IMG/VR virus record: IMGVR_UViG_3300048587_000389
Coordinates: 1 to 64,000 of that record
DNA from: a virus
Lineage: Duplodnaviria; Heunggongvirae; Uroviricota; Caudoviricetes
Strand: one strand, 5' to 3'
DNA: 64,000 bases
Part shown: one piece after another, positions 3,965 to 43,372 of the stretch
Layout of the letters: every line of letters begins with the position of its first letter
Numbering within the stretch: position 1 is the first letter of the stretch
Program-made: the position numbers and the translations under genes
The notes under the pieces: model-generated
The model's input: the letters and a program-made list of their open reading frames with translations, nothing else
Databases searched by the model: none
Told to the model about the DNA's origin: nothing

Positions 3965-3966
3965 TT

Positions 3967-16329: not shown

Positions 16330-16330
16330 G

Positions 16331-16776: not shown

Positions 16777-16829
16777 TTGTTGTTCCTCCTGTAAGTGATT
16801 ATAACACACTGAATACGGTTTGTAAACAG

Positions 16830-16982: not shown

Positions 16983-16991
16983 ACAATTTCC

Positions 16992-17201
16992 TTATGTGTA
17001 TATATGCGCTTCACCATTGCGCATTTCTATTGTCCATTGATCTTCACCGTATGTCTCATTTAGAAATGCTTCTAATACATCTTCATCAATATCTAAGACG
17101 TATGCATACGGTAATCCAATTAGTGGATCTTTTAACACCTGAAACTTATATTTGTTTATCAAATCATCTGTAACTTCTATAAGATCGATATGGACTATCA
17201 T
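16992..17201 (-). CDS. hypothetical small protein
   Basis: AAAGGAGAACATC RBS. Confidence 0.5.
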   Translation of the reverse strand: MIVHIDLIEVTDDLINKYKFQVLKDPLIGLPYAYVLDIDEDVLEAFLNETYGEDQWTIEMRNGEAHIYT

Positions 17202-17212
17202 GATGTTCTCCT

Positions 17213-17365
17213 TTAAACTTCTGTTTTTTGTATTCTGTACTTTTTAGTAGGGTTGTCTTTAATAAGCTGATCTCTCATTTTCTGTGCTTCTTCTAAGGTT
17301 GATACACTTACAATAATATCTGAATCCTTACTGAGATCGTAGATTCTGAATGCATACTTTTTCAT
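17213..17365 (-). CDS. small protein (50 aa)
   Basis: GGAGGCCAACATG RBS; directly downstream of leftward promoter 17393-17421. Confidence 0.45.
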   Translation of the reverse strand: MKKYAFRIYDLSKDSDIIVSVSTLEEAQKMRDQLIKDNPTKKYRIQKTEV

Positions 17366-17392
17366 GTTGGCCTCCTTGTTTATATTGAATAT

Positions 17393-17421
17393 AGTATATC
17401 ACACGGAAAAAGGTTTGTAAA
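17393..17421 (-). promoter_or_regulatory. leftward sigma70-like promoter (ACTATTTACAA -35, TATACT -10) with upstream GATATAGT element
   Basis: read on minus strand: TTTACA(17)TATACT; GATATAGTCTGT immediately upstream of -35. Confidence 0.5.
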
Positions 17422-17435
17422 TAGTACAGACTATA

Positions 17436-17735
17436 TCAAATCTTAGCCAATTCTTCTTTAGCAACTTTCTTTAAGTATGATGCTGCCAATTCTTTTGTTT
17501 CCCATGTGTAAGCTTCTTCTGACAAGAATTCGTTGTGCTCAAAGAGTCTGTATCTAATAACTGCCTTGTTAGCAAAGCCATCATAACAAATTGCAACTTC
17601 AACAATGTGACCAGAGATGAATTCAATTCTCTTGTTGTTAAGCATTGCATAAACTTTTTGTCCAACACAATACTTTGGAGTCATTTTTATGAGTCGCCAT
17701 TTCTTACGGTCCTCAAGTTTTACTTTTTTGTACAT
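17436..17735 (-). CDS. hypothetical protein
   Basis: start set at ATG 17735 (AAGGAGG RBS) because promoter 17772-17800 lies inside the longer track ORF. Confidence 0.5.
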   Translation of the reverse strand: MYKKVKLEDRKKWRLIKMTPKYCVGQKVYAMLNNKRIEFISGHIVEVAICYDGFANKAVIRYRLFEHNEFLSEEAYTWETKELAASYLKKVAKEELAKI

Positions 17736-17771
17736 ATTTGCCTCCTTCGGCTGTATTCGGTTAACAAGTGT

Positions 17772-17800
17772 AATATAACTCACATTGTTCTATTTGTAAA
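17772..17800 (-). promoter_or_regulatory. leftward promoter CCCTATTTACAAA(17)TATATT
   Basis: same family motif on minus strand. Confidence 0.5.
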
Positions 17801-17851
17801 TAGGGAAATGAGGATGTAAAATGTTGTGAAACTTTGATAAAATGTACAAAT

Positions 17852-18598
17852 ATGAACAAAATAATAGCGATTGGTGACATCCATGGTCATTTTGATCAGC
17901 TCATGGAGCTTTGGGAAAAGTTAGAAGCTGAGGGTGTAGACTTTGATAAAGATGAGTTTGTCTTTCTTGGAGACTATGTTGATGGCGGACCAGATGTAAA
18001 GAAAGTTCTTGATTTTCTTATTGAGCTTAAAGCCACAAAAAAGAACTATCACTTTCTGTATGGCAATCACGAAGATCTATTGTTAGATGCACTTAGACCG
18101 CATCACCCTATATACGGTAGCTTTGATCTTTGGTATCAGCAAGGCGGAAGAGAAACTGTTGATTCGTTTGTAAGAGACATGGATCTTGAGCCGTATGAAA
18201 GATCTCTTATTAGCCCTAAGAATGTAATTACCGAAGAGTATGTGAGATTCTTAGCTACACTCGAGTCATTCTATGACACAGAGAAGTACTTCTTTGTGCA
18301 TGGAGGTATATATCCTAATAAGTCGATTGAAGAGAACAAAGAGACCACTTCAAGATACGATATGATCTGGATAAGAGATGAGTTCATCTTGTCAAAATAT
18401 GATTGGGGCAAGAAAATAATCTTTGGTCATACGATCAATGACGGTAGATACAACCCAGGCTTTCTCTCTCCAATTGTGCGCAAAAACAAGATTGGTATCG
18501 ATACTATGATGCACAATACTGGACGTTTGACAGCGGTTATTCTGCCAGATGAAACGTTCGTTCAAACAGATTATGTAGAAGATCTCGAGAAGATCTGA
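17852..18598 (+). CDS. PPP-family Ser/Thr protein phosphatase (lambda phosphatase / ApaH-like)
   Basis: GDIHGH, GDYVDGG, GNHE metallophosphatase motifs. Confidence 0.7.
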   Translation: MNKIIAIGDIHGHFDQLMELWEKLEAEGVDFDKDEFVFLGDYVDGGPDVKKVLDFLIELKATKKNYHFLYGNHEDLLLDALRPHHPIYGSFDLWYQQGGRETVDSFVRDMDLEPYERSLISPKNVITEEYVRFLATLESFYDTEKYFFVHGGIYPNKSIEENKETTSRYDMIWIRDEFILSKYDWGKKIIFGHTINDGRYNPGFLSPIVRKNKIGIDTMMHNTGRLTAVILPDETFVQTDYVEDLEKI

Positions 18599-19718: not shown

Positions 19719-20984
19719 ATGATTAGCTACGTAGTTGTGGAGCCCAATAAGGCACACGTAGTAGTAACAATGGGGAGAGGACGCAAAGTTTATCACCCAT
19801 CAAAAGAAGGATCGGCAAGTGCTTATTGGTACATCGGTCTTTTAATGAGACGTATCATCGTATCTCTTGAGAACGTAAAGCATGAGATTAATGATATCGT
19901 TCTAAGAGACAAGAATGTGGCACCATTCAACTGTGACATCACATGTTGGTTTAAGATCACAGATCCTCAACTTGCAGCAGAAAAGCTTGATGTAGATGAA
20001 GATGGCAACATCATGCAGTCTATTCGAGAAACACTCAATGCTCAAGTTCAAGGTGTAGCAAGAGACGCTGCAATGAAACAAGAGATTCTTGAATTGATGC
20101 GTGACCGCAAAACATTCAGTGAGACTCTCAAATCAGTGGTCAACGGTGATCTTGATGAGTGGGGTGTCCAATTAGTGAAACTCGAAATCATTGACTTTAC
20201 TGATGTTCCAAACAGCAGTGTCATTAAAGATTACGAAGCACGAAGCCAAGCAGAGATCAGTTCTTTGACTCGTATTAAAGTTGCAGAACAAGATCAACTT
20301 GCTCAAGTTAAAGAAGCAGTAGCAAAGAAAACTGCTGAACAAGCAAATATCGATGCTGATCAAGTAATTGAGTTGCGTACCATTGAGAAAGAGCAAACAG
20401 TTGGTGAACGTAAAGAAGCTTCAAGACTTGAAGTTGCAAAGGCTGCTGAAAAAGCAAACACTCAAGAAGTTTTGGCGCAAAAGACCAAAGTTCTTGGTGA
20501 AGCTGAATACACTGCTTTGGCTTTGAAGAAGAAAGCAGAAGGTGAGAAAGACGCTACAATTGAAGAGGCAACAGGTAAAGCAGAGGCTGTTAAGCTTGAG
20601 GCAGAAGCACAAGCAGAAGCTAAGACAAAGACTGGTACTGCTGAAGCAGAAGTCATTCGTCAAACTGGTACTGCTGAAGCTGATGCTACTGAAAAGAAAG
20701 CTGAGGCTCAGAAGAAATTCACAGATGTGTCCAAAGATATTGAGTTGGCTAAACTTGCTGCTGAAGTCATCAAAGTCAAGTTCACCTCAATGGCTGCTGC
20801 AGTAGAAAAAGCTAATGTCAATGTGGTTACACCAGACATGAAGTTTATGGGCTTCGGAGCAGAAGAAGGTGCAGGAATTGGCGCAATGGTGAAAGCTCTT
20901 CAATCTGTATCAGGTATTGACTTACCAAAAGCAGTTGAAGCAGGTGCAAAAGCATTAGCAAAGCCAACCACAACAAAGGCTTAA
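19719..20984 (+). CDS. SPFH/band-7 (flotillin-like) protein with long A/E/K-rich coiled coil
   Basis: N-terminal SPFH-like domain then about 200 aa of AEAKT-type repeats. Confidence 0.5.
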   Translation: MISYVVVEPNKAHVVVTMGRGRKVYHPSKEGSASAYWYIGLLMRRIIVSLENVKHEINDIVLRDKNVAPFNCDITCWFKITDPQLAAEKLDVDEDGNIMQSIRETLNAQVQGVARDAAMKQEILELMRDRKTFSETLKSVVNGDLDEWGVQLVKLEIIDFTDVPNSSVIKDYEARSQAEISSLTRIKVAEQDQLAQVKEAVAKKTAEQANIDADQVIELRTIEKEQTVGERKEASRLEVAKAAEKANTQEVLAQKTKVLGEAEYTALALKKKAEGEKDATIEEATGKAEAVKLEAEAQAEAKTKTGTAEAEVIRQTGTAEADATEKKAEAQKKFTDVSKDIELAKLAAEVIKVKFTSMAAAVEKANVNVVTPDMKFMGFGAEEGAGIGAMVKALQSVSGIDLPKAVEAGAKALAKPTTTKA

Positions 20985-21329: not shown

Positions 21330-22100
21330 ATGAAGAAAATCATAGTCTTAGTTGCCCTCTTTGCTTTGTCTGTTACAACAGCTTTCGCAAAGTTCTCAAC
21401 TGGACTTCCAAACCCAAAAGCGTATGTCAGTGACTTTGCAAATGTCATTAGTCAAGAAGCAGAAGATCGCATCAATGAGAAACTCGACTACACAAAGAAG
21501 ATGACCACAAACGAAGTGGCAGTCGTTACGATTAAGAATCTCGGAGATGCATCAATAGAAGAGTACGGAATTGCTTTGGCTGATGAATGGAAGCCTGGAA
21601 CGGAAGAGGCAGACAACGGTGTCATTATGTTGTTTGCAATGGAAAATAGAAAAATGCGCATAGAAGTCGGTCAAGGACTTGAAGGAAAGCTTACAGATGT
21701 CAAAGCAAAGCGCATTTTAGATGATGTCATCAGACCAGAGTTCAAAGCAGAAAATTATGATGCTGGTGTTGAAAAAGGTGTAGATGAGGTTCTCCGAATA
21801 ATAAACTCATCAGAATCGGCAACAGTTGCTGAGCAGGAGACCACACAGAGTCCCAAAAAAGGCATCGGATTCTGGGGGTGGATGGTTATTATAATCATAG
21901 TTTTTGTGATTTTGGGCATACTAGGAGCTATCCTAGATGATGGTTCAGGAGGCACAACATCTTTTGACAGTGGTGGAGGTGGATTCTCTGGAGGATCGTT
22001 TACAAGTTTTAGCAGTAGCGATTCATCTGACAGTGGAAGCAGCTTTGACGGCTTCTCAGGTGGAAGCTTTAGCGGAGGCGGAGCCTCAGGAGGATGGTAA
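21330..22100 (+). CDS. TPM-domain (TLP18.3/DUF477-type) membrane protein with Gly/Ser-rich tail
   Basis: signal/TM, YVSDFANVIS ... GVIMLFAMENRKMRIEVGQGLE pattern of TPM phosphatase domain, TM, C-terminal GFSGGSFSGGGASGGW. Confidence 0.55.
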   Translation: MKKIIVLVALFALSVTTAFAKFSTGLPNPKAYVSDFANVISQEAEDRINEKLDYTKKMTTNEVAVVTIKNLGDASIEEYGIALADEWKPGTEEADNGVIMLFAMENRKMRIEVGQGLEGKLTDVKAKRILDDVIRPEFKAENYDAGVEKGVDEVLRIINSSESATVAEQETTQSPKKGIGFWGWMVIIIIVFVILGILGAILDDGSGGTTSFDSGGGGFSGGSFTSFSSSDSSDSGSSFDGFSGGSFSGGGASGGW

Positions 22101-22541: not shown

Positions 22542-22615
22542 GGGAGTATAATGTTAGAGGTCTAGCATATCACTCTTCCAAAGTGAAAGGGCCAGTTCGA
22601 ATCTGGTTACTCCCT
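22542..22615 (+). tRNA. tRNA-Gly (anticodon UCC)
   Basis: acceptor GGGAGTA/TACTCCC, anticodon stem TCACT/AGTGA, loop CTTCCAA. Confidence 0.75.
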
Positions 22616-26950: not shown

Positions 26951-27382
26951 ATGAGAACTATAAGACATTCAGTCTTCGAGACAAATAGCAGCAGCTCACA
27001 TTCAATTTCTATTTCAAAAGAGACAGCAGTCATGCAGACACTTCCTGTTGGTGCAGACGGTGTACTTCGTTTTAGCGGTGGAGAATTTGGATGGGAGTTT
27101 GAGCACTACTCTAGTGCAATGAGCAAAGCAATATACGCTCTTACTTGGGCTAAGCAATACGGCACAAAAGAAGATGTAGCAATGCTTAGAAAAGTTCTCA
27201 AAGAGCAAACTGGCGCAAAGAAAGTCTTGTTTGAGAGTGTAAGCGATGAGTACTATCCATGGGGATACATTGATCATCAGAGTGATGACGTCTGTAAAGA
27301 AGCTTTTGTCGATGAAGAGACACTAAGAATGTTTATATTCAACCCACAAAGTAATTTCACAACAGACAATGACAACCACTAA
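26951..27382 (+). CDS. hypothetical protein
   Basis: 143-aa ORF preceding radical SAM gene. Confidence 0.45.
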   Translation: MRTIRHSVFETNSSSSHSISISKETAVMQTLPVGADGVLRFSGGEFGWEFEHYSSAMSKAIYALTWAKQYGTKEDVAMLRKVLKEQTGAKKVLFESVSDEYYPWGYIDHQSDDVCKEAFVDEETLRMFIFNPQSNFTTDNDNH

Positions 27383-28277
27383 ACTCTACCAATACCGCAA
27401 CGGAAACTATGATGTGACCATCATGAAAGATGGCACAAAGATTAGAGACTATGATGAGTTTCCTCTTCCTGTTGTTCCTGAATCTATAGATCTCAAGATT
27501 ACGAACTATTGCGATGCTGGATGTGCTTTTTGTCATGAAATGAGCACCAAAGAAGGCAAACATTGTGAAATAGACCGCACTATCTCTTTGATGCACACTT
27601 TTGCTCCACACAATGCAGAAATAGCTATTGGCGGAGGCAATCCCCTTTCGCATCCAGACCTCAACTACTTCCTCCATGCAGTTAGAAGCATGGATCTTAT
27701 TGCTAACATCACAGTCAATCAGCTTCACATCAAGAAATTTGAGCATGAAATCAAGTTCTATCAAGAGCAGAATCTCATTAAAGGACTTGGTATCTCTTGG
27801 TTCCCACATAGAATTGAAGATTTAGACACTTTCATGGGTGAGAATGTGGTAATCCATATCATTATGGGAGTTCATCCTATCAGTGACATCGAGAGACTTC
27901 TGGAGCGGTTTAAGAAGGTGAAGATTTTAGTCCTCGGATACAAAACGTTTGGAAGAGGTGAGCATTACTATGATAAGCTCAATGAAGTTGTAGAAAAGAA
28001 CAAGTACGATTGGTTTACAAACATTGGCAGATTGATGCACAAAGAAGGATTGACACTTTCATTTGACAACTTAGCTATTGAACAACTCAAGATGAAACGA
28101 TTCTTCATAAAAGAGAATTGGGACAAGTTTTATATGGGTGATGACGGTCATTTTACAATGTATATAGATGCTGTCAAAGAAGAATATGCACGATCTTCTA
28201 CAAGTAAAAAGCGCTACAAATATAAAGATACTATCCCACAAATGTTTAACCACATAAGGAGTTTATATGTCAAATGA
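27369..28277 (+). CDS. radical SAM domain protein
   Basis: CDAGCAFC (CxxxCxxC) cluster motif and IAIGGGNPL glycine-rich SAM motif. Confidence 0.55.
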   Translation: MTTTKLYQYRNGNYDVTIMKDGTKIRDYDEFPLPVVPESIDLKITNYCDAGCAFCHEMSTKEGKHCEIDRTISLMHTFAPHNAEIAIGGGNPLSHPDLNYFLHAVRSMDLIANITVNQLHIKKFEHEIKFYQEQNLIKGLGISWFPHRIEDLDTFMGENVVIHIIMGVHPISDIERLLERFKKVKILVLGYKTFGRGEHYYDKLNEVVEKNKYDWFTNIGRLMHKEGLTLSFDNLAIEQLKMKRFFIKENWDKFYMGDDGHFTMYIDAVKEEYARSSTSKKRYKYKDTIPQMFNHIRSLYVK

Positions 28278-28461
28278 CACAGTCAACAACATGGTAGATG
28301 AGCAGCTCAAGAATCTGTTACTTGAATCAGTAAGAGCTAATCTCAATTTTATGAAGAAAAGTATCTCCTATTCTGAATTGGAAAACTTAATTGCCACATC
28401 AATATTGGCGGCAAGAACAAATATCATAAAGATAGTGGAGACAAAAGGTAATGCAGAGTAA
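28267..28461 (+). CDS. hypothetical small protein
   Basis: 64-aa ORF overlapping neighbours. Confidence 0.35.
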   Translation: MSNDTVNNMVDEQLKNLLLESVRANLNFMKKSISYSELENLIATSILAARTNIIKIVETKGNAE

Positions 28462-28825
28462 AGCCCCTTTCGAATCACGTCTGTTCAGTTTGGAAAACAA
28501 AAATGGCCTTAGAGAATACTGGCCCATACTCAATCGTGACAAGATCAAAGTGATTCAGGAGCAAATTGGTGTCGATTATGCAGAGCCCAAAAAATTACTT
28601 GCACGGTTTTACAGAAGTATCACAACATCAGTTGATCAATGTGTCTGTTTTGTAGACAAATGCATCAAATCTGAAGCTAAAAAGAAGCAAAAGGCCACAA
28701 AAGGTGAGATCATCCTTCTCTTTGCTCTCATACTAGTACTCTGGATGTTTATCGGTATCGAAGTAGCAGCTATAACTAGTCTCTTAGGCATCGTTACAAG
28801 TCTGTTGATGCACTCAAGAAAATAG
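28451..28825 (+). CDS. hypothetical protein with C-terminal TM
   Basis: 124-aa ORF. Confidence 0.4.
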   Translation: MQSKAPFESRLFSLENKNGLREYWPILNRDKIKVIQEQIGVDYAEPKKLLARFYRSITTSVDQCVCFVDKCIKSEAKKKQKATKGEIILLFALILVLWMFIGIEVAAITSLLGIVTSLLMHSRK

Positions 28826-28878
28826 ACTCTCCAACACTCTCAGCTCATCTCACATTCTCTCTCATTACAAAAGCAGAC

Positions 28879-28915
28879 AAGAAAAAAGCCACCGGTCTGG
28901 GCAGACGGCGGCGGC
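28879..28915 (-). terminator. leftward rho-independent terminator
   Basis: GCCGCCGTCT-GCCC-AGACCGGTGGC hairpin followed by TTTTTTCTT on minus strand. Confidence 0.55.
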
Positions 28916-28981
28916 TAATTTCTTATTTCTTGCAGTTGTTTCAGTTTTGCAGACAGTCTGCCGAAAACGGCCGACTCTGTT

Positions 28982-29113
28982 TTAGAGATCCAAGAAAGTT
29001 CTTTTGTGAATTCGTGGTCTTCCTGGGCGGTTGCGGATGCCCATTCGATATCGATACTCTTTCACAATCGGTTTAAGTGCCGATCTCACTAAGTTACGAA
29101 TTTGCTTCGCCAT
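28982..29113 (-). CDS. small basic protein (43 aa)
   Basis: GAAAGGAGACAAC RBS; MAKQIRNLVRSALKPIVKEYRYRMGIRNRPGRPRIHKRTFLDL. Confidence 0.4.
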   Translation of the reverse strand: MAKQIRNLVRSALKPIVKEYRYRMGIRNRPGRPRIHKRTFLDL

Positions 29114-29404
29114 GTTGTCTCCTTTCATAGTATTTTTACGTAGTAAAATCGTATTCATAAAGTATTTATAACGTATAATAAATTTGTAATAGATTTGTTA
29201 AAGTTATTTTCTCCTTTCCAATATTTGTTTTGTATTTATGAGTGGATCTTATATCATTTTTCTTAGTTTGTAAATAGGCAATAAGTGTATCAAAGTATAT
29301 CGCCCAGTATGTCACAAAATAGGATTTGTTTTGGGTAACCTTATAGATACACCATTTAACCGAATACATGTCAAATCAATTTTGGTATAGTTTGATATAG
29401 TTTT

Positions 29405-29438
29405 CCCTATTTACAAAGGTATAAAAAGATGGTATAAT
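29405..29438 (+). promoter_or_regulatory. promoter CCCTATTTACAAA(17)TGGTATAAT with upstream TTTGATATAGTTT
   Basis: first copy of duplicated promoter-leader cassette. Confidence 0.55.
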
Positions 29439-29472
29439 CAACTTAATATAAAAAATTAAATAGGAGCACCAA

Positions 29473-29727
29473 ATGAAAGTACCAAACTTGAACGAATTTG
29501 AAAAATACGTATACGACAACATTCGATCAATTGAAAAATATATCATCACTTACGGATTGCAAGATAGCATGATCACCTTAATTGAAGAGCCAAAAGCATT
29601 CAACTACTTTGACTTCAATCACATGGTTGGAAACCCTGATTGGGATTTTGCAGAAGCAGAAATTAAAGTTTACGGTGGAATTCTTTACGAAATCTGGAGT
29701 TCATACCAAGAAGAAGACGAGGAATAA
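29473..29727 (+). CDS. acidic small protein
   Basis: ATAGGAGCACCAAATG RBS. Confidence 0.5.
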   Translation: MKVPNLNEFEKYVYDNIRSIEKYIITYGLQDSMITLIEEPKAFNYFDFNHMVGNPDWDFAEAEIKVYGGILYEIWSSYQEEDEE

Positions 29728-29730
29728 ACT

Positions 29731-29764
29731 CCCTATTTACAAACATAAAAAACAATGGTATAAT
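29731..29764 (+). promoter_or_regulatory. second copy of promoter-leader cassette
   Basis: near-identical about 70-bp cassette. Confidence 0.55.
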
Positions 29765-29797
29765 CAACTTAATAAATAAATATAAAAGGAGGACAAA

Positions 29798-29950
29798 ATG
29801 AAAGCAATCGAATTTTACATCAACGGAGGACTCACCAACATCTTCCCAAATGAGACTGAAAATGATCAAAAGCTCATTGAAAGATACGAAAAGATCGTCT
29901 TACAACAAGATCCTACTCGAAAGATCACAAAAGTCGAGATAACCCTCTAA
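29798..29950 (+). CDS. small protein (50 aa)
   Basis: AAAGGAGGACAAAATG RBS; below track cut-off. Confidence 0.4.
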   Translation: MKAIEFYINGGLTNIFPNETENDQKLIERYEKIVLQQDPTRKITKVEITL

Positions 29951-29973
29951 TCTTCAAACTCTTCAATAGTTAT

Positions 29974-30000
29974 GGCCCCTGGAAACAGGGGTCTTTTTTG
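29974..30000 (+). terminator. rho-independent terminator
   Basis: GGCCCCTGGAAACAGGGGTC hairpin then TTTTTTG. Confidence 0.7.
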
Positions 30001-34471: not shown

Positions 34472-35080
34472 CTAGAGTTTTCGGTCAGATCCGTCTTTCC
34501 AAAACTTTGTCTTGCGCAGATAATGTTCTCTTCTGGCAATGTCCCATGCCTCCATACGGCTAATATTGCTCAATCTATCTGCTAACTTGATCATTATTCC
34601 GTGCTGTGACTTCAATCTAGGAAAATATCTTCCGTACGAGTCTTTTTCACCTTCATGAGTCACCTCCATCACTAAATCTGCAATTTCTTTCCCAAAATTG
34701 TCCAATAACTCATCATACGATGTATTTGTGTCCTCAATTGTGTCATGCAGTAACCCTGCAGCTAAAACAGCCTCATTTTTTGTTACTTTTTGCAAAATAT
34801 TGAACACGTTGAGTAAATGCGCATCAAAATATGACTTTCCTTCATCATCTAGTTGATCTTTGTGCTTACTTTGCGCAAAACGATATGCTCTGCCTACTAC
34901 CATGGGCAAAGAACCAACATATTCAGCATCTCTGCATATATCACACCCTTCTGGGTAATGAACATGGTTGCAGAAGCCGCTCGGGTTAGCAAGCTCTTTC
35001 TGAAAGCCGCAGTGCTTACAAAATAGATCTGGGCGCATTATTTTAAGTCTGCGCTCTTCACTTTTGCTATGGATTTTCAT
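34472..35080 (-). CDS. SpoT/Mesh1-like HD-domain (p)ppGpp hydrolase with N-terminal zinc ribbon (small alarmone hydrolase)
   Basis: AAGLLHDTIEDT and KLADRLSN motifs of RelA/SpoT hydrolase domain; CKHCG ... CDIC ribbon. Confidence 0.6.
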   Translation of the reverse strand: MKIHSKSEERRLKIMRPDLFCKHCGFQKELANPSGFCNHVHYPEGCDICRDAEYVGSLPMVVGRAYRFAQSKHKDQLDDEGKSYFDAHLLNVFNILQKVTKNEAVLAAGLLHDTIEDTNTSYDELLDNFGKEIADLVMEVTHEGEKDSYGRYFPRLKSQHGIMIKLADRLSNISRMEAWDIARREHYLRKTKFWKDGSDRKL

Positions 35081-35086
35081 GTTGTC

Positions 35087-35593
35087 CTAATCAGTTGTAT
35101 ATCTAATGAATTTGTTTCTTTGCATATCATTAAGATAAAATCTGAGATACTGAATACAAGCCAGCGTTTCATCTTCTGTCAAATTCTGTTTCCAGTATTT
35201 TTCTTTGAGCTCAATTCTGAACCATACACTTCCGTGTTTTGGGCCCATAAAATGTCCGCAACTTACTCTTTGTGAGTTCCATCCAGAGTATGATTTGACT
35301 CCGATGTATTCTTCTTTAAGTGTTTTTGCGCCGTTTCTTAAATCTTTAATTGCTTCGTTAATAGCATCAATGCACTCTTTTGTGAAATAGTCATTTGAAT
35401 TTCTCACCTCTATAATATGCACTCCAGCATCTGCAGCATCGTCGTTCAAGCCATCTTCTATAAGATTTCGTGCTTTGATAAGCTCATTAAGTGATTTATC
35501 AACACTTGCCATGTCTAGATCAAACTTTGTTTTGAGTCGCAATTTCATATCTTGTCTGATACTGATTTGCTTGTTTAGTTCTTCGTATGTCAT
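35087..35593 (-). CDS. hypothetical protein
   Basis: 168-aa ORF. Confidence 0.5.
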   Translation of the reverse strand: MTYEELNKQISIRQDMKLRLKTKFDLDMASVDKSLNELIKARNLIEDGLNDDAADAGVHIIEVRNSNDYFTKECIDAINEAIKDLRNGAKTLKEEYIGVKSYSGWNSQRVSCGHFMGPKHGSVWFRIELKEKYWKQNLTEDETLACIQYLRFYLNDMQRNKFIRYTTD

Positions 35594-35611
35594 TTGTCCT
35601 CCCTCAAAAGA

Positions 35612-35890
35612 CTAATTTAGTATTTGTGGAATAATAAAATCCACATCATCGTAAGAAATAATGCAATCTCTTTCAAGTTGAGGTGCCATTTTAAGCAACT
35701 GATCTTTGATTTTCTCAAAGTCTGTGCCCCACTCTTCTTCCATGACATCATCTAGTTTACATTTGATAACAAATTTTATGATGTTGGGCCCGTAAGTGTA
35801 TTCTCCCTCAGTCCATGCTTTAGAAAGATAGTAGATCAAAAATGTTACTTCATTAGACATATTTCTCCTTAATCTAGATGTGATGCACAT
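35612..35890 (-). CDS. hypothetical small protein
   Basis: 92-aa ORF. Confidence 0.45.
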   Translation of the reverse strand: MCITSRLRRNMSNEVTFLIYYLSKAWTEGEYTYGPNIIKFVIKCKLDDVMEEEWGTDFEKIKDQLLKMAPQLERDCIISYDDVDFIIPQILN

Positions 35891-36102
35891 TGGTATGTTA
35901 TACCGAATATGCCCTTGTTTTCTAATAGCACTCCACCACGCTTATCACAGTTTGTCTTGAATTGCGCAACCATCTCTTCACCTCTCCATATTGGCTGTGA
36001 CATCGCAATAAAAAGAAGTATGCCAAGCAAAATTGCTGTTGCTGTCCAAACACGCTCGCCTGCTTTTGTTGTAAAGAAGCCTCCGCCTATGACATCACCC
36101 AT
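35869..36102 (-). CDS. small membrane protein
   Basis: TM AILLGILLFIAM. Confidence 0.4.
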   Translation of the reverse strand: MGDVIGGGFFTTKAGERVWTATAILLGILLFIAMSQPIWRGEEMVAQFKTNCDKRGGVLLENKGIFGITYQCASHLD

Positions 36103-36103
36103 G

Positions 36104-36340
36104 TTACTCCTTTATTTTTTGGTCGTGGACCAAATTTGTAAACTTAGCCATTGCGCCATCAAATTGTTCTGCAATTTCGTTGATCTTTTTCTGATCAACA
36201 CCAATGTGAAGAGCCATGTCAGTTGCTTCTTTGAAAGTTTTGACAAATTGTGTTAACGCACTTCTCTGTTTGTCGTAAATGCGCTTCTTCCAGTATTCAG
36301 ATTTCTGTTCTGGTGTAAAAACTGTTCGAGTCTTACTCAT
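36104..36340 (-). CDS. hypothetical small protein
   Basis: 78-aa ORF. Confidence 0.45.
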   Translation of the reverse strand: MSKTRTVFTPEQKSEYWKKRIYDKQRSALTQFVKTFKEATDMALHIGVDQKKINEIAEQFDGAMAKFTNLVHDQKIKE

Positions 36341-36348
36341 ATTTCCTC

Positions 36349-37503
36349 CTAATCCTTGTAGGGATCATAAATATCTTTGCCGGCCATAGCAACTCCGACC
36401 GGTGTGAGCTGATGAAGTATTTCGATAGTGCCTTCATGATATGCAAGCACTTCGTTTAATTTTTTGTAAGCGTCTGGAGCCTCATCTGCTCCGCCACCCT
36501 TGAGGATGACTCCTCTTTCTCCAGCTTCCCACTGTACGACTTCCCAATCAATCTTTTTCTTAGCTTGACTGCGACTTAGAGCTCTTCCGGCACCATGTAC
36601 TGTAGTATATAGCGCTTCTTTAGAAGTGTCAGAGTCGATTCCACGGAGTATCACAGAGTTGTCCATCATATTCGAGCCAACAAATCCGAGCTGTCCAGGG
36701 AATGCCGGAGTACATCCTTTGCGGACTACCCAATACTTTTTCCCATAATGCTCTTCCTGCCAAGCAAAGTTGTGATGGTTGTGAATCTCTTCTACTGCTC
36801 TTGTCTGTAATATGTCCAAAACTTCTTCAACAACTGCATTACGGCCTGCATAAGCATATTCGCCAGCAAGTGTCATTGCTTCAATGTAAGCCTGACCTAA
36901 GTCAGTGCGCACATCAAAGAGAATAGGTGGACTGTCCATCTCTCCTTCATTTGCATGTTCATGGAATTCTTTTCCTTGATTAAGTGCTATAAATCCTGAA
37001 GCTGTCTTGTGGCCGAATCCTCTTGAACCGAAGTGTACTCCGATCCAGACAAATCCGTTCTCGTCTTTGAAGAGGTCAACATAATGGTTTCCACTACCAA
37101 CTGTTCCCAGCTGGTTAACCGCAAGATCATAAAGTTTACGTTGCGGCTCAAATTTAGCATCTTTGATGTGTTGTAAGACAATGTCATCCACTTTTTTCTT
37201 ATTTGTGCGACCAACGCCGAAGGATACTCTTTCAACAATTTCGTCCATAATCTTTCGAATGTCACCAAGATCTTCGATCTTAATATCAGTTCGAACGGCT
37301 TTGTTACCACACCCAATGTCATATCCCACACCGCTTGGAGAAATGAAATACTCATACGCAACAGTTCCGCCAATAGGCATTGAATAACCCACATGATGAT
37401 CAGCTGAAAGAACTGCATATTCGGCGTCTCCTGCTTCTGTGCATCTTATAAGTTGAGCATGTGCTCGCTGGTCTAATGGACCAAATGTTTTTACTTTTGT
37501 CAT
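36349..37503 (-). CDS. rtcB: RtcB-family RNA 3'-phosphate/5'-OH ligase
   Basis: GYDIGCGN, GSGNHYVDLF, HFGSRGFGHKTA, HNHHNF, VVRKGCT, TVHGAGR (RtcB metal and GTP-binding motifs). Confidence 0.8.
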   Translation of the reverse strand: MTKVKTFGPLDQRAHAQLIRCTEAGDAEYAVLSADHHVGYSMPIGGTVAYEYFISPSGVGYDIGCGNKAVRTDIKIEDLGDIRKIMDEIVERVSFGVGRTNKKKVDDIVLQHIKDAKFEPQRKLYDLAVNQLGTVGSGNHYVDLFKDENGFVWIGVHFGSRGFGHKTASGFIALNQGKEFHEHANEGEMDSPPILFDVRTDLGQAYIEAMTLAGEYAYAGRNAVVEEVLDILQTRAVEEIHNHHNFAWQEEHYGKKYWVVRKGCTPAFPGQLGFVGSNMMDNSVILRGIDSDTSKEALYTTVHGAGRALSRSQAKKKIDWEVVQWEAGERGVILKGGGADEAPDAYKKLNEVLAYHEGTIEILHQLTPVGVAMAGKDIYDPYKD

Positions 37504-37515
37504 ACGTGTATATTC

Positions 37516-37544
37516 ATTATAAACTTTTTATATTCGCTCGTAAA
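37516..37544 (-). promoter_or_regulatory. leftward promoter TTTACG(17)TATAAT immediately upstream of rtcB
   Basis: -10 ends about 6 nt before rtcB ATG, no SD, so possibly a leaderless transcript. Confidence 0.4.
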
Positions 37545-37571
37545 CTGCAAAAAGGCCCTCCGAAGAGGGCC
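37545..37571 (-). terminator. leftward rho-independent terminator after homing-endonuclease gene
   Basis: GGCCCTCTTCGGAGGGCC hairpin then TTTTT on minus strand. Confidence 0.6.
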
Positions 37572-37759
37572 GATTCTGCTAACCGTTGTATTGGATGTTC
37601 GTGAGCATTTTCTTTAGTGACCATGCTTCGTACTCAAGGAATGCGCTCAATACTTCATGTCCATGTAGCTCAAGGATCTCAGAGAATTTCTCTTTGAAAC
37701 TCTTGCGTGATAGTACATAACTTCGTAAAATCTTGTGAATATCTTCCATAAACTCTCCT

Positions 37760-38278
37760 TTAATCGTTCATTAATAAATCTGCGTTTTCTGTTTCCCATC
37801 GCAGTCGGGCTTGGTAAGCTTCTTCCTCGGTGAGGTGCAAGCCTAAGTTGTATTCGACACCGCGGACGGTGATGTAAGCTTGCCACTTACCATTACGAGT
37901 TTCGCAGACACCGTTGTACATGCTTGTAGCATCGTATGTCTTCTCTTCTCGTTCTCGGAATGATTTACCAATGTGATACCACCATGTGCGCCATTCAAGA
38001 TTCTGGATGCGCAAATCATCTTTGTCTCCATTGATGAAGCCCGGAGTCTGATGCTCATGATCAGGTGGAAGGCCGCGGAAGGTGATCAACATGAGGTATG
38101 GAACACTAAATGTCGCTGCTCTGCCCCTCTTAGAAAGAGAAACAAGGTGAAGTCCATTCTCATTGATCTGGTGCTTCAACAGCCGAATACCATTGCGGTA
38201 AACATGCCCCTTGGTGGACACTTCATAGCGGTAACCGGGAAGTGGAACCGGTTTGATGATTGCGACATTGTCGTTCAT
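37760..38278 (-). CDS. HNH homing endonuclease with C-terminal AP2 DNA-binding domain
   Basis: N-terminal HNH_3-type region (GYRYEVSTKGHVY ... HLVSLSKRG), C-terminal YNGVCETRNGKWQAYI ... EEEAYQARL AP2 signature. Confidence 0.6.
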   Translation of the reverse strand: MNDNVAIIKPVPLPGYRYEVSTKGHVYRNGIRLLKHQINENGLHLVSLSKRGRAATFSVPYLMLITFRGLPPDHEHQTPGFINGDKDDLRIQNLEWRTWWYHIGKSFREREEKTYDATSMYNGVCETRNGKWQAYITVRGVEYNLGLHLTEEEAYQARLRWETENADLLMND

Positions 38279-38376
38279 ACATCCTCCTTGTTATTTTGTA
38301 ACATATTCAGTATATTACAAAAACACAGGAGAAGTAAACTATATCTTTTGGGAACAAACTATATCAAATACAAGGG

Positions 38377-38550
38377 TTATTCAGCAGATTGCTGCTGTTT
38401 AATGAAGGTTTCTGCTTCTTCTTTTGTGGTAAACCAGCTGATAGACTGACCACTGTGTTGTTTCTTAGTATTGCCTGACGCAATTTCTTTGAATACAGTT
38501 ACACACCATGAATTAGCACGCTTTACCCATTTAGGTCCTAGAATTCTCAT
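38377..38550 (-). CDS. small protein (57 aa)
   Basis: TAAGGAGATAATATG RBS. Confidence 0.35.
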   Translation of the reverse strand: MRILGPKWVKRANSWCVTVFKEIASGNTKKQHSGQSISWFTTKEEAETFIKQQQSAE

Positions 38551-38559
38551 ATTATCTCC

Positions 38560-38724
38560 TTATATGTCCCATGACATTTGCTCAAGGCATTCGTCACAAA
38601 ACCAATGCTTTTTATCCCAATCACCTTCTTGATATTCATGAAGATATGGGTTGTATGTCCACTCACACATTTTCTTGTGTTTGCAAGAGTGACATTTGTG
38701 TAATTTCTTTTGTGGTTCTTTCAT
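38560..38724 (-). CDS. small zinc-ribbon protein (54 aa)
   Basis: CHSC ... CDEC; ATGA coupling with upstream gene. Confidence 0.35.
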   Translation of the reverse strand: MKEPQKKLHKCHSCKHKKMCEWTYNPYLHEYQEGDWDKKHWFCDECLEQMSWDI

Positions 38725-38894
38725 ACGTACACCTTTACGTATATTCCAGTTATATCACCAAAACGACGAAAAAGAAACTCCAAAAGTTCTGCTTTCTCTT
38801 CTTCGGGTAAGGCTACTCGAAGCTCTCTCGTGCCAATTTTGTCTGCGCCAAAGGTTTCTATAGCCTCATTTTCAATCATCTCAAATATGTTCAT
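38721..38894 (-). CDS. small protein (57 aa)
   Basis: ORF MNIFEMIENEA... Confidence 0.3.
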   Translation of the reverse strand: MNIFEMIENEAIETFGADKIGTRELRVALPEEEKAELLEFLFRRFGDITGIYVKVYV

Positions 38895-39088
38895 GGGATG
38901 TCCCTCCGAAGTATAAGGTTTATTGTTTTTGCTATGATTGCACTAAATCCTATAAACCAGAATGGCGGAAAGAATGAAAGCACAATCCAAAGATACATCT
39001 CTTCTGGATCTATGTCAAAGTTCCACCAATAGAGAAGCGCAAAGATATTAAGCCCGACTAGTGCAAAGTATATTGCTAAGAAATTCAT
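38891..39088 (-). CDS. small membrane protein
   Basis: two TM spans. Confidence 0.4.
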   Translation of the reverse strand: MNFLAIYFALVGLNIFALLYWWNFDIDPEEMYLWIVLSFFPPFWFIGFSAIIAKTINLILRRDIP

Positions 39089-39507
39089 GAGTTGAGTTCT
39101 TTCTTATGTGCAAAGTAGTGGTCTGTGCAACAGTAGTCTTTCTTCTTGGTAAACTTCCAGTTGCGATTTGCAAAGAAGCCTATGCCGCAAGAAGGGTATT
39201 GACATGTGCATTCTTCATCTAGATCATAATTCTTGCCAATCTTTTCACAGTCTGGACTACAGAACATCAATGCGCTTCTCTTTTTTGATGCTAGACTGTG
39301 CACATTAATGGGATCGCCACAAATGACACATCTAAACTTCTCGTTGACAAAAGCTTGCTTGACAAAGGAGTAATTAGCACCAATGCATTGCTCAAAAATA
39401 GCCTTAACTCGCTGGCGAGTAATGCCATAAGCGTCACCGATGCTTTCAAGAGTTGCCTCCGGCATCAATAACTTGCCAATGATTTCTCCTTTTATGTCTT
39501 CTGCCAT
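39085..39507 (-). CDS. HTH plus Cys-rich zinc-finger protein (possible transcription regulator)
   Basis: sigma region-4-like HTH ATLESIGDAYGITRQRVKAIF; CVIC ... CSPDC ... CTCQYPSC. Confidence 0.45.
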   Translation of the reverse strand: MAEDIKGEIIGKLLMPEATLESIGDAYGITRQRVKAIFEQCIGANYSFVKQAFVNEKFRCVICGDPINVHSLASKKRSALMFCSPDCEKIGKNYDLDEECTCQYPSCGIGFFANRNWKFTKKKDYCCTDHYFAHKKELNS

Positions 39508-39508
39508 A

Positions 39509-39793
39509 TTAGTAACTGATCATCTTTTCAGTGATCACCTTATCTTTATATTCAGCTAAAAAACGGTTTGCTAGCTCCTTTTTAGGAATGCGATTGTGGA
39601 AGTAAGCGTCTACTTTTCTGCTAATTGATCTGAGTGTTGTTTTGTGATCATCGTCATAGTCTATTGAATAGATATGTACTTTGAACTTATATCCTTCAGA
39701 CTCTATATCAACAACGTATTGTGATGAATCGAGCGAGAAGAACTTCTCAATCTCTGATTTTGAGCGCATATTCAAGACTTTAAATGTGTGCAT
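39509..39793 (-). CDS. hypothetical small protein
   Basis: 94-aa ORF. Confidence 0.45.
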   Translation of the reverse strand: MHTFKVLNMRSKSEIEKFFSLDSSQYVVDIESEGYKFKVHIYSIDYDDDHKTTLRSISRKVDAYFHNRIPKKELANRFLAEYKDKVITEKMISY

Positions 39794-39997
39794 ACATCCT
39801 CCGTATATGTTTTATATTTGAGTTGATTGTATCACAAAAATGGGAAGTTGTAAATATGAAAAAAGCTACCAATTGCTGAGTTTGAGGAACTTACGTTTGT
39901 AGGGGAGGACGTATGTCTCAGCAGCTTGGTAGCTTATGTTGTAATTATATCAAACTATATCGTACTATAACATCCCCAGATTTGTAGCACGAGGCCC

Positions 39998-40474
39998 TCA
40001 GTTTCCCAGTAAAGGCACTGAAGTATGGGGTTGGATATTATATCCATCCACTTTTTCAAGGTATTTTCCCAAGTATTCGAGATAAGTGTTCCGGTCATCT
40101 CCGGGTGGCATGTCAATAAGTTCATCCGCGATACATAAACTCTTCACTATGCGTGGATATAACGACTGTTCTACAGCATTTAAGTGAACACGAAGTGAAG
40201 TATAGTTTTGCGGGTTAAGAATCTCTAGTTCTTTAGCTAGTTTCTTGTCAATGTCTTCAAGGAAAAATACAACATCTCTAGCATATCCTCCGCTAGCTAC
40301 ATGATGATAATCGTGTAACCAACACAAAGCAACAATCTCGTTATTGTATCCTTTAGCAATTGCTCGCTGGACTACACGCTTTACGTGAAAGATTATTGGT
40401 CTGTCGTACAGAGACTTGTGCTCGTAGAGACTAAGCCCCAGTTGTACTGTCTGCTGGAGCTGAAGGGATGTCAG
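39998..40474 (-). CDS. putative HD-domain hydrolase
   Basis: IFHVKRV ... ALCWLHDYHH His-Asp signature; start uncertain (track ORF extends to 40561, overlapping upstream gene). Confidence 0.35.
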   Translation of the reverse strand: MTSLQLQQTVQLGLSLYEHKSLYDRPIIFHVKRVVQRAIAKGYNNEIVALCWLHDYHHVASGGYARDVVFFLEDIDKKLAKELEILNPQNYTSLRVHLNAVEQSLYPRIVKSLCIADELIDMPPGDDRNTYLEYLGKYLEKVDGYNIQPHTSVPLLGN

Positions 40475-40805
40475 CATAAACTTGAAGCTCCTCTTTAGCG
40501 GCATTTTCTTTGTTAGATGATGGCATGACGTCCAAGAACACGAAACCAATTCCTTTGTCAAATTCTTTCTTTGTCATTTTTGCCCATCCTTCAGCCTTAG
40601 AAAGTGATCGCCAGTTTTTGTTTACCCAAGCTTCGAACTCTTCCTGCACTTCTTGGGGCGCATAAAAAGCTCTTACATTCCATTGAATGCCTGGGAGCAT
40701 AAGTTGATCAAGGTCAATGCCGAATTGTCGATACATATTCCAGCCAATAGACTTGTTAGGGTCTAGCAGAGATGTATCTAGTTGTGTAATTTCTCTAGTT
40801 GTCAT
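40431..40805 (-). CDS. hypothetical protein
   Basis: GAGGAGGAAAATG RBS at internal Met. Confidence 0.45.
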   Translation of the reverse strand: MTTREITQLDTSLLDPNKSIGWNMYRQFGIDLDQLMLPGIQWNVRAFYAPQEVQEEFEAWVNKNWRSLSKAEGWAKMTKKEFDKGIGFVFLDVMPSSNKENAAKEELQVYADIPSAPADSTTGA

Positions 40806-40954
40806 TTTCCTCCTCATCTTCTATGCTATGCATAGCGTCTTCAAATCCTTGCCAATTATCTACTCCGTACTCTTCAAGAGCTTCTAATTCTCTTGAGCGT
40901 CGTTTCAATCCATTGTACTCGGACATTGAAATTGTAATTGTTTCTTCTGGCATG

Positions 40955-41437
40955 TTACTCCTTTTCGTCGAACTCACCTTTAATAGCTCGCATAACTTGA
41001 TCTACAATTGTTGTGAGATGCTCTGGCGTAGTATCTAAGTGCGCATCAAGAACTTCTCTCACTCTTCGTCTATCTTCAAGACTGTCCCAAATAACTGTTC
41101 CGAAACATTCCTGTATCTTTCCGCCTTTGAGAACAACAATCCAGTATGAATCATCTGTAATGTCAGTTACTTCTACATTGCAATCAAGATCTGGAACTAT
41201 TGCTGCCACCGCTCGTAAATAATTGAGAAATGCTTCGTAATACTCTATTTTTGTGAAGTATATTTGATCTAGACTTTTTGAGTATGTAGCAAAGCCGTAT
41301 GCTTGGTGCTTGTTAAGACCTTCAAGTCTTTTAACTTGATTCTCATTAAGGTCAACTGAATCAAGCTCAATACTTGAAGCATCAAGATTTTCTTTTTCAG
41401 CAGACTCGATGATAGCCCTATTAGGATTCTTTTTCAT
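40955..41437 (-). CDS. hypothetical acidic protein
   Basis: GGAGGAGCGTATG RBS at internal Met of track ORF. Confidence 0.4.
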   Translation of the reverse strand: MKKNPNRAIIESAEKENLDASSIELDSVDLNENQVKRLEGLNKHQAYGFATYSKSLDQIYFTKIEYYEAFLNYLRAVAAIVPDLDCNVEVTDITDDSYWIVVLKGGKIQECFGTVIWDSLEDRRRVREVLDAHLDTTPEHLTTIVDQVMRAIKGEFDEKE

Positions 41438-41453
41438 ACGCTCCTCCTTACTA

Positions 41454-41996
41454 TTATATTCTAGATTGTTTTCGAAGTACATCAGCAACATGGGACTGGA
41501 TCTTACTAAGTTGTACTGGCGTGTAGTTGATTTGCTCAACACACACATTGTAAAAAGATTTAGGGTTCGGGACTGGTCCTACTCCTTTCGAGTGCACATG
41601 ACCGTGGACATTAAAGAAGTTACTCGGCAATCCTCGAATAGGATAGTGTGAGAAAATGATTTTATACTTATCAAACTCTTTGAAAATAGGCTCACCAATA
41701 ACACGGAATCCCATTTCTTCATAGAGAGCTATACTCTTTGTGTCGTGGTTACCGAGTATCAGCCATTTATTGCCATTTAGTTGTTTGATGTATTCTCTGG
41801 CTTCTTCAATGGGACACAAAAAGACGTCTCCTAAATGGAGAATATTGGAATGCTTTGAAACTGTATTGTTCCAGTTTCGCACCATCATTTCATTGTGATT
41901 TTCAGGCCTATTTTCGTACTTGACTATATTTTTGTGACCAAAGTGTGTGTCCGATATAATCCAAGTGTTACTGTTTAGCCAGTTCTGTCGACTCAT
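41454..41996 (-). CDS. calcineurin-like metallophosphoesterase
   Basis: ISDTHFGH, GDVF, GNHD, HGHVH motifs. Confidence 0.6.
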   Translation of the reverse strand: MSRQNWLNSNTWIISDTHFGHKNIVKYENRPENHNEMMVRNWNNTVSKHSNILHLGDVFLCPIEEAREYIKQLNGNKWLILGNHDTKSIALYEEMGFRVIGEPIFKEFDKYKIIFSHYPIRGLPSNFFNVHGHVHSKGVGPVPNPKSFYNVCVEQINYTPVQLSKIQSHVADVLRKQSRI

Positions 41997-43208: not shown

Positions 43209-43372
43209 ATATTATTCCTTCATTATAACATAATTAAGACTGCATGTAAACACTAAAACTTGCAGTAGTTGTATTGTATCATTACTGCGATTCTGTAATT
43301 CTGCGATTCTATCTCTAACTAACTAATTCGATACTGCTTTCTGCATTCTGCTATCTGCTTAATAATACTGCA

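Follow-up and report, generated by a model that had tools for sequence, protein, structure and literature searches.

A stretch of 64,000 nucleotides of viral DNA (the window, positions 1 to 64,000 of the IMG/VR record IMGVR_UViG_3300048587_000389; Duplodnaviria; Heunggongvirae; Uroviricota; Caudoviricetes) encodes what may be a set of genes for maintaining translation and countering host defence. It would consist of the RNA ligase RtcB, a small alarmone hydrolase (SAH), a large collection of transfer RNA (tRNA) genes and a transfer-messenger RNA (tmRNA). Judged from the sequences and from analogous systems, this interpretation has about an even chance of being right. In essence it has been published before. 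What is new is a virus-restricted clade of SAHs with a charge-swapped base pocket, here carrying a Cys/His-rich extension, together with a paralog that lacks the catalytic dyad. All open reading frames (ORFs) named in a first-pass annotation of this DNA lie where it had placed them, and the leftward genes are on the minus strand. The members of the set are the following:

36349–37503, minus strand: RtcB 3'-phosphate/5'-OH RNA ligase, 384 amino acids (PF01139, phrog_1075)
34472–34903, minus strand: catalytic core of the SAH, residues 60–202 (PF13328; virus-restricted "DD type")
34904–35080, minus strand: N-terminal Cys/His-rich extension of the SAH, 59 residues, a putative zinc knuckle or ribbon
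3967–26646, plus strand: tRNA island with 31 tRNA genes according to ARAGORN and 32 according to Rfam, decoding all 20 amino acids
4371–4703, plus strand: phage-encoded tmRNA inside the tRNA island (Rfam RF00023, 65.1 bits, gathering score 47, E=4e-23)

The set is proposed to sustain translation when the translation apparatus comes under attack from host or competitor systems. Where metal-independent RNases have cut tRNAs, or possibly other RNAs, and left 2',3'-cyclic-phosphate and 5'-OH ends, RtcB would reseal them directly, a reaction for which GTP and Mn would be needed. The Mn-dependent HD/ED centre of the SAH would remove a 3'-pyrophosphate, preferably from (p)ppApp produced by toxic alarmone synthetases (toxSAS) or from the pyrophosphorylated A76 of tRNA CCA ends, with (p)ppGpp as a less likely substrate. 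The phage tRNAs would replace depleted host tRNAs, and the tmRNA would rescue ribosomes stalled on broken mRNAs. A counter-defence reading of this kind, combining the repair of cleaved tRNA by RtcB with an HD alarmone phosphodiesterase, has already been published for jumbo phages; the comparative study concerned deduces that phage RtcB rejoins tRNAs after their cleavage by metal-independent RNases (PMC7824862). Evasion of tRNA-targeting defences by means of phage tRNAs is also known (PMC11555353, PMC10802454).

The family of the ligase had been recognised correctly in the first-pass annotation. The protein matches PF01139 with 230.7 bits (E=5e-68), with residues 28–372 on profile positions 13–424 of 426, and phrog_1075 with E=2e-72. 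In the alignment with P. horikoshii RtcB, the catalytic residues all find their counterparts: D62, C65, H140, H157, H244 and H303 correspond to D95, C98, H203, H234, H329 and H404, and N139 is also kept. The two-Mn site (Asp, Cys and three His) is complete, H303 is the predicted GMP-accepting His, and the enzyme is, by all residues compared, catalytically intact. It shares its Pfam family, the Mn-binding residues and the GMP-accepting His with the RtcB proteins of E. coli, P. horikoshii and phages. Phages often carry RtcB (681 deposited records), and as in these the gene stands alone; RtcA, RtcR, archease and the PrfH partner were not found in the window. It differs from them in its small size of 384 amino acids and in its identity of at most 52% to any deposited phage RtcB, and it scores far under the curated NCBIfam cut-offs for the E. 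coli-type and PrfH-associated models. A search of the literature brought up no experimental study of what RtcB does in a phage.

The second enzyme had been described as a zinc ribbon joined to an HD hydrolase of the SpoT/Mesh1 type. Its assignment to HD_4 stands, as do the motifs LLHDTIEDT and KLADRLSN quoted for it. The protein at 34472–35080 matches PF13328 with 57.7 bits (gathering score 27.2, E=1.5e-15), and its sequence matches in the PDB are Rel, SpoT, Mesh1, SAH and Aph1. In an AlphaFold2 model, the core (residues 56–200) has a predicted local distance difference test score (pLDDT) mostly above 90, and a Foldseek search with this model returned Mesh1, TtRel, RelSeq, SpoT and Aph1, all with a probability of 1.00. 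The family comprises more than 400 metagenomic proteins, in whose alignment H88, H112-D113, E116-D117, D168 and N172 are invariant or nearly so. The SAH retains the metal ligands (H...HD...D), the catalytic ED dyad and the D-x-x-x-N motif. Sequence and model agree in identifying the HD_4 protein as a catalytically intact SAH.

The DD-type clade to which this SAH belongs is almost exclusively viral, as far as the searched databases can tell. Among the best 80 matches in 185,579 species-representative genomes, the only cellular DD-type sequences come from two short contigs of Methanosarcina metagenome-assembled genomes, while IMG/VR and metagenomes contain hundreds of DD-type SAHs at 55–70% identity. 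The two Methanosarcina-binned contigs (L193 and L194) measure 5.5–6.1 kb and could be archaeal viruses or binning artefacts.

The 59-residue extension of the SAH carries the motif C21xxC24...C37xH39xH41...C46xxC49. It is probably translated, because an AGGA lies 4 nt before the first ATG at 35080 and no such motif precedes Met60. Its pLDDT is below 50 in the AlphaFold2 model, and no significant match was obtained in the PDB or Pfam, where the best hit was an A20-type zinc finger with E=0.75. Kinship with the zinc-finger-like antitoxins of toxSAS, or with another known domain, is for want of such a match not claimed here. The zinc ribbon of the earlier description is a guess at the level of motifs. 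Most family members have no extension; different extensions with two CxxC pairs occur in two of 33 other family ORFs (L111/P0012 and L138), and other Cys-rich N-termini are found in P0102 and P0002/P0028.

Both enzymes are encoded in a leftward block of minus-strand genes, early or accessory in character, that extends between about 43.25 and 31.0 kb and holds some 45 small ORFs, most of them unannotated. The promoter consensus TTTACR-N16-18-TAYAAT occurs 12 times in the window, with 0.17 copies expected by chance, and looks like the phage's promoter set for the host RNA polymerase. The copies are located at 4053, 11942, 12820, 16826(-), 24143, 25375, 26535, 29410, 29736, 37544(-), 39854(-) and 43250(-); many carry an extended -10 TG, and several lie within or beside the tRNA island. 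Three leftward-facing copies fall within the block and define the transcription units A, B and C:

43222–43250, minus strand: sigma-70-type promoter of unit A, TTTACA-17-TATAAT, with TG
39826–39854, minus strand: sigma-70-type promoter of unit B, TTTACA-17-TACAAT
37554–37571, minus strand: GC-rich, intrinsic terminator-like hairpin at the end of unit B, GGCCCTCTTCGGAGGGCC followed by TTTTT
37516–37544, minus strand: sigma-70-type promoter of unit C, TTTACG-17-TATAAT
35087–35593, minus strand: 168-amino-acid protein (phrog_13608) directly upstream of the SAH in unit C

Unit A includes a metallophosphoesterase gene and has the gene of a second HD protein as its last. Unit B includes the gene of an HNH protein and ends with the hairpin and its T-run (37571 to 37554). 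Unit C starts with rtcB, and the SAH gene follows four small genes on. That rtcB has its own promoter, as proposed in the first-pass annotation, is borne out by the order of a terminator hairpin followed by TTTACG-17-TATAAT, which ends 12 nt upstream of the rtcB ATG. The resulting leader is very short and lacks a Shine-Dalgarno motif; the rtcB transcript is possibly leaderless or almost leaderless. All genes from there through to the SAH gene lie on one strand and overlap or are separated by gaps of at most 18 nt. This tight packing and the lack of a predicted terminator in between make it likely that rtcB and the SAH gene are transcribed together.

The first-pass annotation went further and combined RtcB, the SAH, the second HD protein and the metallophosphoesterase into one RNA-repair and stress-nucleotide module. 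This proposal had to be given up. The genes are spread over three promoter-defined units among the numerous small ORFs, and their association is not conserved in an unbiased sample of 26 DD-type SAH loci that was compared with two sets of control loci (n=80 and n=53). RtcB was found near one of the 26 SAH loci, and a metallophosphoesterase near four, as against 10 of 80 and 6 of 53 control loci. An apparent enrichment of the metallophosphoesterase in early small samples (5 of 12 loci) vanished in this larger one. The four genes do not form a conserved module, and their clustering in the window is idiosyncratic.

In searches that started from the window proteins, a looser association is seen in two other phage contigs, L002 and L081 (the latter also the contig of L112), where RtcB and a DD-type SAH are encoded at most 1.3 kb apart on one strand. 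Gene order differs between them, the intervening genes are unrelated, and the RtcB of L081 is only 29% identical. That this proximity recurs is a hint of selection for linkage. Homology among the ORFs adjacent to the SAH in the window, in L081 and in L002 was also considered and rejected, as they fall into three separate PHROGs and show no alignment to one another. In L114 and L120, DD-type SAH genes are located between tRNA genes. The remaining DD-type neighbourhoods are small phage gene blocks with occasional translation-related genes. Release-factor-like genes occur less than 2 kb from a DD-type SAH in two loci: a 107-amino-acid RF-1-domain protein in L104 (11778–12101) and a 364-amino-acid eRF1/baeRF/acVLRF1-like protein in L108 (9666–10760). 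They may reflect further links to ribosome rescue.

This arrangement leaves room for the view that RtcB, the SAH and their neighbours are unrelated accessory genes in a hypervariable early region, each acting alone or decaying, and without a joint function. The three separate promoters with their terminator, the many unannotated small ORFs, the lack of conserved synteny for RtcB and the metallophosphoesterase in the sample above, the unrelated intervening genes and the loss of catalytic residues in the HNH and second HD proteins all agree with it. It does not readily explain why RtcB and the SAH are intact and share one tightly packed unit, or why they are adjacent in three phages with different gene orders and RtcB subclades. 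Nor does it account for the repeated presence of both gene types inside tRNA arrays elsewhere or for the heavy investment of this genome in translation, with 32 tRNAs and a tmRNA. We consider this explanation possible, though it has clearly less than an even chance.

The SAH differs from Rel, SpoT and Mesh1 in the pocket that holds the base of the substrate. In TtRel, R43 and R44 stack on the guanine, to which S45 and T153 are bonded (PMC10083569). The family alignment has an invariant Q-x-D-D-x-G where Rel has Q-x-R-K-S-G. Aligned with Aph1, Mesh1 and Rel, residues D78, D79 and E80 of the SAH take the places of TtRel R43, R44 and S45, and its invariant R175 that of T153. The guanine-contact residues of the (p)ppGpp-hydrolysing Rel/SpoT/Mesh1 type were not found in the window SAH. 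Of the SpoT-like ppGpp hydrolase proposed in the first-pass annotation, the SAH fold and the catalytic residues remain; ppGpp as its substrate is doubtful, the guanine-stacking Arg pair and the Ser being replaced.

A precedent for such a pocket is Aph1 (PDB 7smg), a (p)ppApp-specific hydrolase of a Bacteroides caccae prophage in which D24 replaces R43. D24 and R119 of Aph1 exclude ppGpp, and the D24R/R119A double mutant gains ppGpp hydrolysis (PMC10083569). The SAH resembles Aph1, whose sequence was taken from L099 for the alignment, in its core of about 145 residues, which aligns end to end, and in its fold, with a template modelling (TM) score of 0.73 normalised to Aph1. Both have an Asp for the guanine-stacking Arg, an Arg on the helix after D-x-x-x-N and a conserved C-terminal Tyr. 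The SAH differs from Aph1 in its sequence (identity of about 24–27%), in the position of the Arg (N+3, not N+5), in a sequence profile that is nearer to Mesh1, and in its neighbourhood, where neither a (p)ppApp synthetase nor a MuF toxin was found. A RelA/SpoT synthetase motif is absent from the window and from every phage locus examined, by a motif search validated on long RelA/SpoT homologs (RSHs). The idea that the SAH confers immunity to a self-encoded toxSAS or MuF toxin was dropped for this reason: these 64 kb contain no synthetase gene that would give it the part of an immunity protein.

The charge swap can also be followed in a set of 251 distinct RSH hydrolases. An Asp at position 78 goes with an Arg at N172+3 in 125 of 128 cases, and an Arg or Lys at position 78 pairs with Asp, Thr or Ser there, never with Arg. 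The near-clade relatives L137, L139 and L142 from IMG/VR have R-D or C-D at positions 78–79; the R-D forms carry a Thr at N+3 and the C-D form (L142) an Arg, which makes them natural intermediates of the charge swap. From the charge-swapped pocket (D78/D79/E80 and R175), an adenosine-based substrate is probable. We predict that the SAH acts on (p)ppApp or on pyrophosphorylated tRNA CCA ends rather than on ppGpp.

This prediction competes with the assumption that the SAH is an ordinary (p)ppGpp hydrolase, with which the phage suppresses the stringent response of its host and so keeps rRNA, tRNA and sigma-70-type phage promoters active. Mesh1, Rel and SpoT are indeed the best sequence and fold matches of this HD_4 protein, and its metal ligands, ED dyad and D-x-x-x-N motif are identical to theirs. 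The phage also depends on 12 sigma-70-like promoters, of which several lie inside or flank the tRNA island, and close relatives with Arg78 exist (L137, L139). Unlike Mesh1, Rel and SpoT, the SAH has Asp-Asp for the Arg-Arg/Lys of the base contact, an inter-helix loop shorter by about 13 residues, and at N+3 an Arg where Mesh1 has Asp and Rel has Thr. The replacement of the TtRel residues R43/R44/S45 is invariant in the clade, the equivalent Asp and the Arg on the C-terminal helix abolish ppGpp hydrolysis in Aph1, and restriction to viruses fits counter-defence better than housekeeping. An ordinary (p)ppGpp hydrolase is thereby rendered improbable.

For a role against toxSAS, the closest analogues are PaSpo of Salmonella phage SSU5 and PbcSpo of phage PVP-SE1. 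Like the SAH, each is encoded by a phage and consists of a single RSH hydrolase domain with HD and ED motifs, and both have been shown to neutralise toxSAS. Phage SAHs neutralised every toxSAS toxin against which they were tested (PMC7229694), and SAHs can strip the pyrophosphate that toxSAS add to the tRNA CCA end (Kurata 2021 preprint). A counter-toxSAS role is plausible for PaSpo, PbcSpo and the window SAH alike. PaSpo (SSU5_099) differs from the SAH in that it keeps the Arg (GQKRKYTGEDYINHP), and the two are 29% identical over 82 residues. A Cys/His-rich N-terminal extension has been described for neither PaSpo nor PbcSpo.

Phage RtcB is tied to tRNAs because it is often embedded in phage tRNA arrays. 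In a sample of 60 IMG/VR loci anchored on relatives of the window RtcB, 26 have tRNA genes within 10 kb of it. The gene lies inside a tRNA array in L006, L030, L034, L038 and L070 and directly after one in L041. The window itself has a large tRNA set, as the first-pass annotation had noted. An extra tRNA at 22542–22615 (plus strand), which Rfam detects with 52.8 bits and ARAGORN does not call, brings this set to 32. According to both programs, the tRNA genes are ordinary, unsplit and free of introns. The tmRNA match is full-length with an intact tRNA-like domain and is flanked by tRNA-Gly and tRNA-Ala; ARAGORN made no call here either. One possible frame of its tag ends in ...SFKMSLLT-UAA. The SAH-carrying viral contig L158 likewise encodes a tmRNA (3562–4011, tag ANDSAYSLAA). 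It also has a tRNA with a CUA anticodon (6078–6154), as has L163 (16217–16293); ARAGORN labels both "Pyl", and they are possibly amber suppressors.

The same facts could mean that RtcB serves the phage's own RNA metabolism, by maturing or re-joining phage tRNA or tmRNA precursors or by repairing damage from the phage's own RNases, but this is very improbable, as bacterial-type maturation of such intron-free tRNAs needs no ligase and neither a splicing endonuclease nor an RNase of the phage was identified in the window, however often RtcB lies in phage tRNA arrays and however many tRNAs accompany the tmRNA here.

The counter-defence idea of the first-pass annotation thus keeps its context, namely the location of RtcB in tRNA arrays and the activity of phage SAHs against toxSAS (PMC7229694), and loses the module. 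Several points weigh against a joint function of RtcB, the SAH, the tRNAs and the tmRNA in protecting translation. The linkage of RtcB and SAH is rare (one of the 26 unbiased DD-type loci and one of 80 RtcB loci), and about 10 kb separate the window RtcB, which is on the opposite strand, from the tRNA island. Enzyme activities, substrates and targets are all inferred. As for the substrate, the class with Asp at position 78 and Arg at N+3 is dominated by one clade, so the covariation largely does not represent many independent events, and the swapped Asp/Arg pair may only preserve a salt bridge while specificity is unchanged. Only two of the six signature residues of Aph1 clearly match, D24 (D78) and Y134 (Y187), for which reason the SAH is not filed as a member of the Aph1 family. 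Aph1 R96 is off by one (R155), whereas D116, R119 and K133 fall, in ungapped alignment, on S174, E177 and H186, and the invariant R175 stands two residues from the R119 position. Furthermore, PaSpo also neutralises the adenosine-type products of toxSAS with its Arg in place. Its behaviour indicates that the Arg excludes no adenosine substrate and that the Asp is not required for this activity.

A translation-protecting set of this kind would have a well-known parallel in the Pnkp and Rnl1 enzymes that T4 sets against the anticodon nuclease PrrC, in that the phage restores or replaces the tRNAs destroyed by a defence system. It would differ in that RtcB seals 3'-phosphate/5'-OH ends directly, without a healing step. 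Neither Pnkp nor an ATP-dependent ligase was found in the window.

A more specific version, which we put forward only tentatively and consider unlikely, sees in unit C a two-enzyme operon for tRNA repair. RtcB would mend breaks in the anticodon loop, and the DD-type SAH would mainly repair RNA 3' ends, and not hydrolyse nucleotides, by removing the A76 pyrophosphate added by toxSAS of the CapRel/FaRel2 type. The adenine-adapted pocket and the N-terminal zinc knuckle would help the SAH to recognise the CCA end, and the dyad-less HD paralog would be a non-catalytic binder of the same ligands or a decoy for them.

The other enzymes mentioned in the first-pass annotation are listed here:

39998–40474, minus strand: divergent SAH-like HD paralog, 158 amino acids, last gene of unit A
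41454–41996, minus strand: calcineurin-like metallophosphoesterase, 180 amino acids, unit A (phrog_547, 2e-45)
37760–38278, minus strand: relic of a NUMOD4/HNH_3-family homing endonuclease, unit B (phrog_959, 5e-18)
17852–18598, plus strand: phosphoprotein phosphatase (PPP) family enzyme, lambda/NinI/ApaH-like (PF00149, 3e-19; NinI-like phrog_246, 2e-45; NCBIfam ApaH/PrpE/Pnkp-like)

The second HD protein gave no match in sequence searches of Pfam, NCBIfam and the PDB. A word-based search found one homolog and an exhaustive HMMER search four remote relatives, one of which passes the Pfam thresholds for HD_4 and HD. Its profile aligns to that of the SAH family with 95.7% probability in hhalign (E=9e-9, 115 columns). 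With a pLDDT of 46, its AlphaFold2 model was too poor for a fold search. The metal ligands H31, H55-D56 and D118 are kept. The ED dyad is lost, LHDYHHV standing for LHDxxED (Glu to H59, Asp to V60), and the conserved Asn (N172 of the SAH) is replaced by D122. The earlier label of a second HD protein is correct as to ancestry: by these comparisons, it is a degenerate SAH paralog whose homology is real but remote. Because the dyad is missing, canonical pyrophosphate hydrolysis is unlikely, and the protein may only bind a ligand.

The calcineurin-like phosphoesterase was rightly named. Its motifs are complete, with SDTH (D16, H18), LGD57, GN83H84D, H117 and GH133VH135, although the Pfam match (E=7.9e-5) stays under the gathering score. 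In the PDB, its sequence matches 1xm7 (E=4e-8); the nearest solved relative is the uncharacterised Aquifex aq_1665, and there is a weak match to a PdeM-like NCBIfam model. The lambda-type phosphatase at 17852–18598 is likewise genuine and belongs to another part of the genome, without a link to the leftward block.

The protein described as a free-standing HNH-AP2 homing endonuclease does belong to the HNH family, with weak Pfam NUMOD4/HNH_3 matches under the gathering score, and its C-terminal 60 residues match C-terminal parts of several HNH-endonuclease PHROGs. It has lost the catalytic His, which is replaced by Phe (GFINGDK), and the Asn of the motif, replaced by Leu. Where four annotated phage homologs, retrieved by tblastn, read N-H-I/N-D-G...N-N, the window protein reads G-F-I-N-G...D-L. 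It is probably an inactive relic. AP2 gave no Pfam match even at E<=1, and the resemblance is by eye only. Unit B also encodes a 140-amino-acid protein (39085–39507, minus strand) with several CxxC pairs and a weak sigma-70 region-4-like helix-turn-helix at the N-terminus, which may be a regulator of this unit. The metallophosphoesterase, the dyad-less HD paralog and the HNH relic belong to other transcription units than RtcB and the SAH, and nothing ties them to the protection of translation.

The phage as a whole appears to be previously undescribed and virulent. Among 50,697 deposited phage records, it has no near-identical relative, and a megablast search with the leftward block found no match. 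No deposited phage protein is more than 55% identical to its ribonucleotide reductase or its RtcB. The window also encodes a large terminase, a virion protein, a RuvC-like resolvase, a class II ribonucleotide reductase and a serine hydroxymethyltransferase. The last of these (1046–2278, plus strand; Pfam SHMT, E=9e-162) lies near the class II reductase (9788–11866), which suggests folate/thymidylate or modified-base metabolism. Further unusual cargo beside the tRNA island comprises an SPFH/Band-7 protein (19719–20984) followed by a TPM-domain phosphatase (21330–22100, plus strand), and a radical-SAM protein (27369–28277). The GC content is low (0.35) in 16001–18000 and 28001–30000, and a negative AT skew (-0.15) is confined to the first of these stretches.

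Host defences that attack tRNA form a fast-growing area, which includes PrrC, PARIS, the retron Eco7/PtuAB, Septu and toxSAS of the CapRel type. Phages are known to respond with substitute tRNAs, with the T4 repair pathway and, in overexpression tests, with stand-alone alarmone hydrolases. The locus described here brings no new principle; it points to an uncharacterised, almost exclusively viral family of hydrolases with more than 400 sequences. The inverted charges of its base pocket make a sharp, testable prediction, namely that the substrate is an adenosine nucleotide or a tRNA end and not ppGpp. Should this be true, many "ppGpp hydrolase" annotations in viromes would need correcting, and a specific anti-toxSAS enzyme would be gained. 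The occurrence of RtcB and SAH genes in phage tRNA arrays lends independent genomic support to the idea that phage RtcB is a tRNA repair enzyme. If the two-enzyme operon were real, phages would hold a dedicated counter to both known chemical routes of tRNA inactivation.

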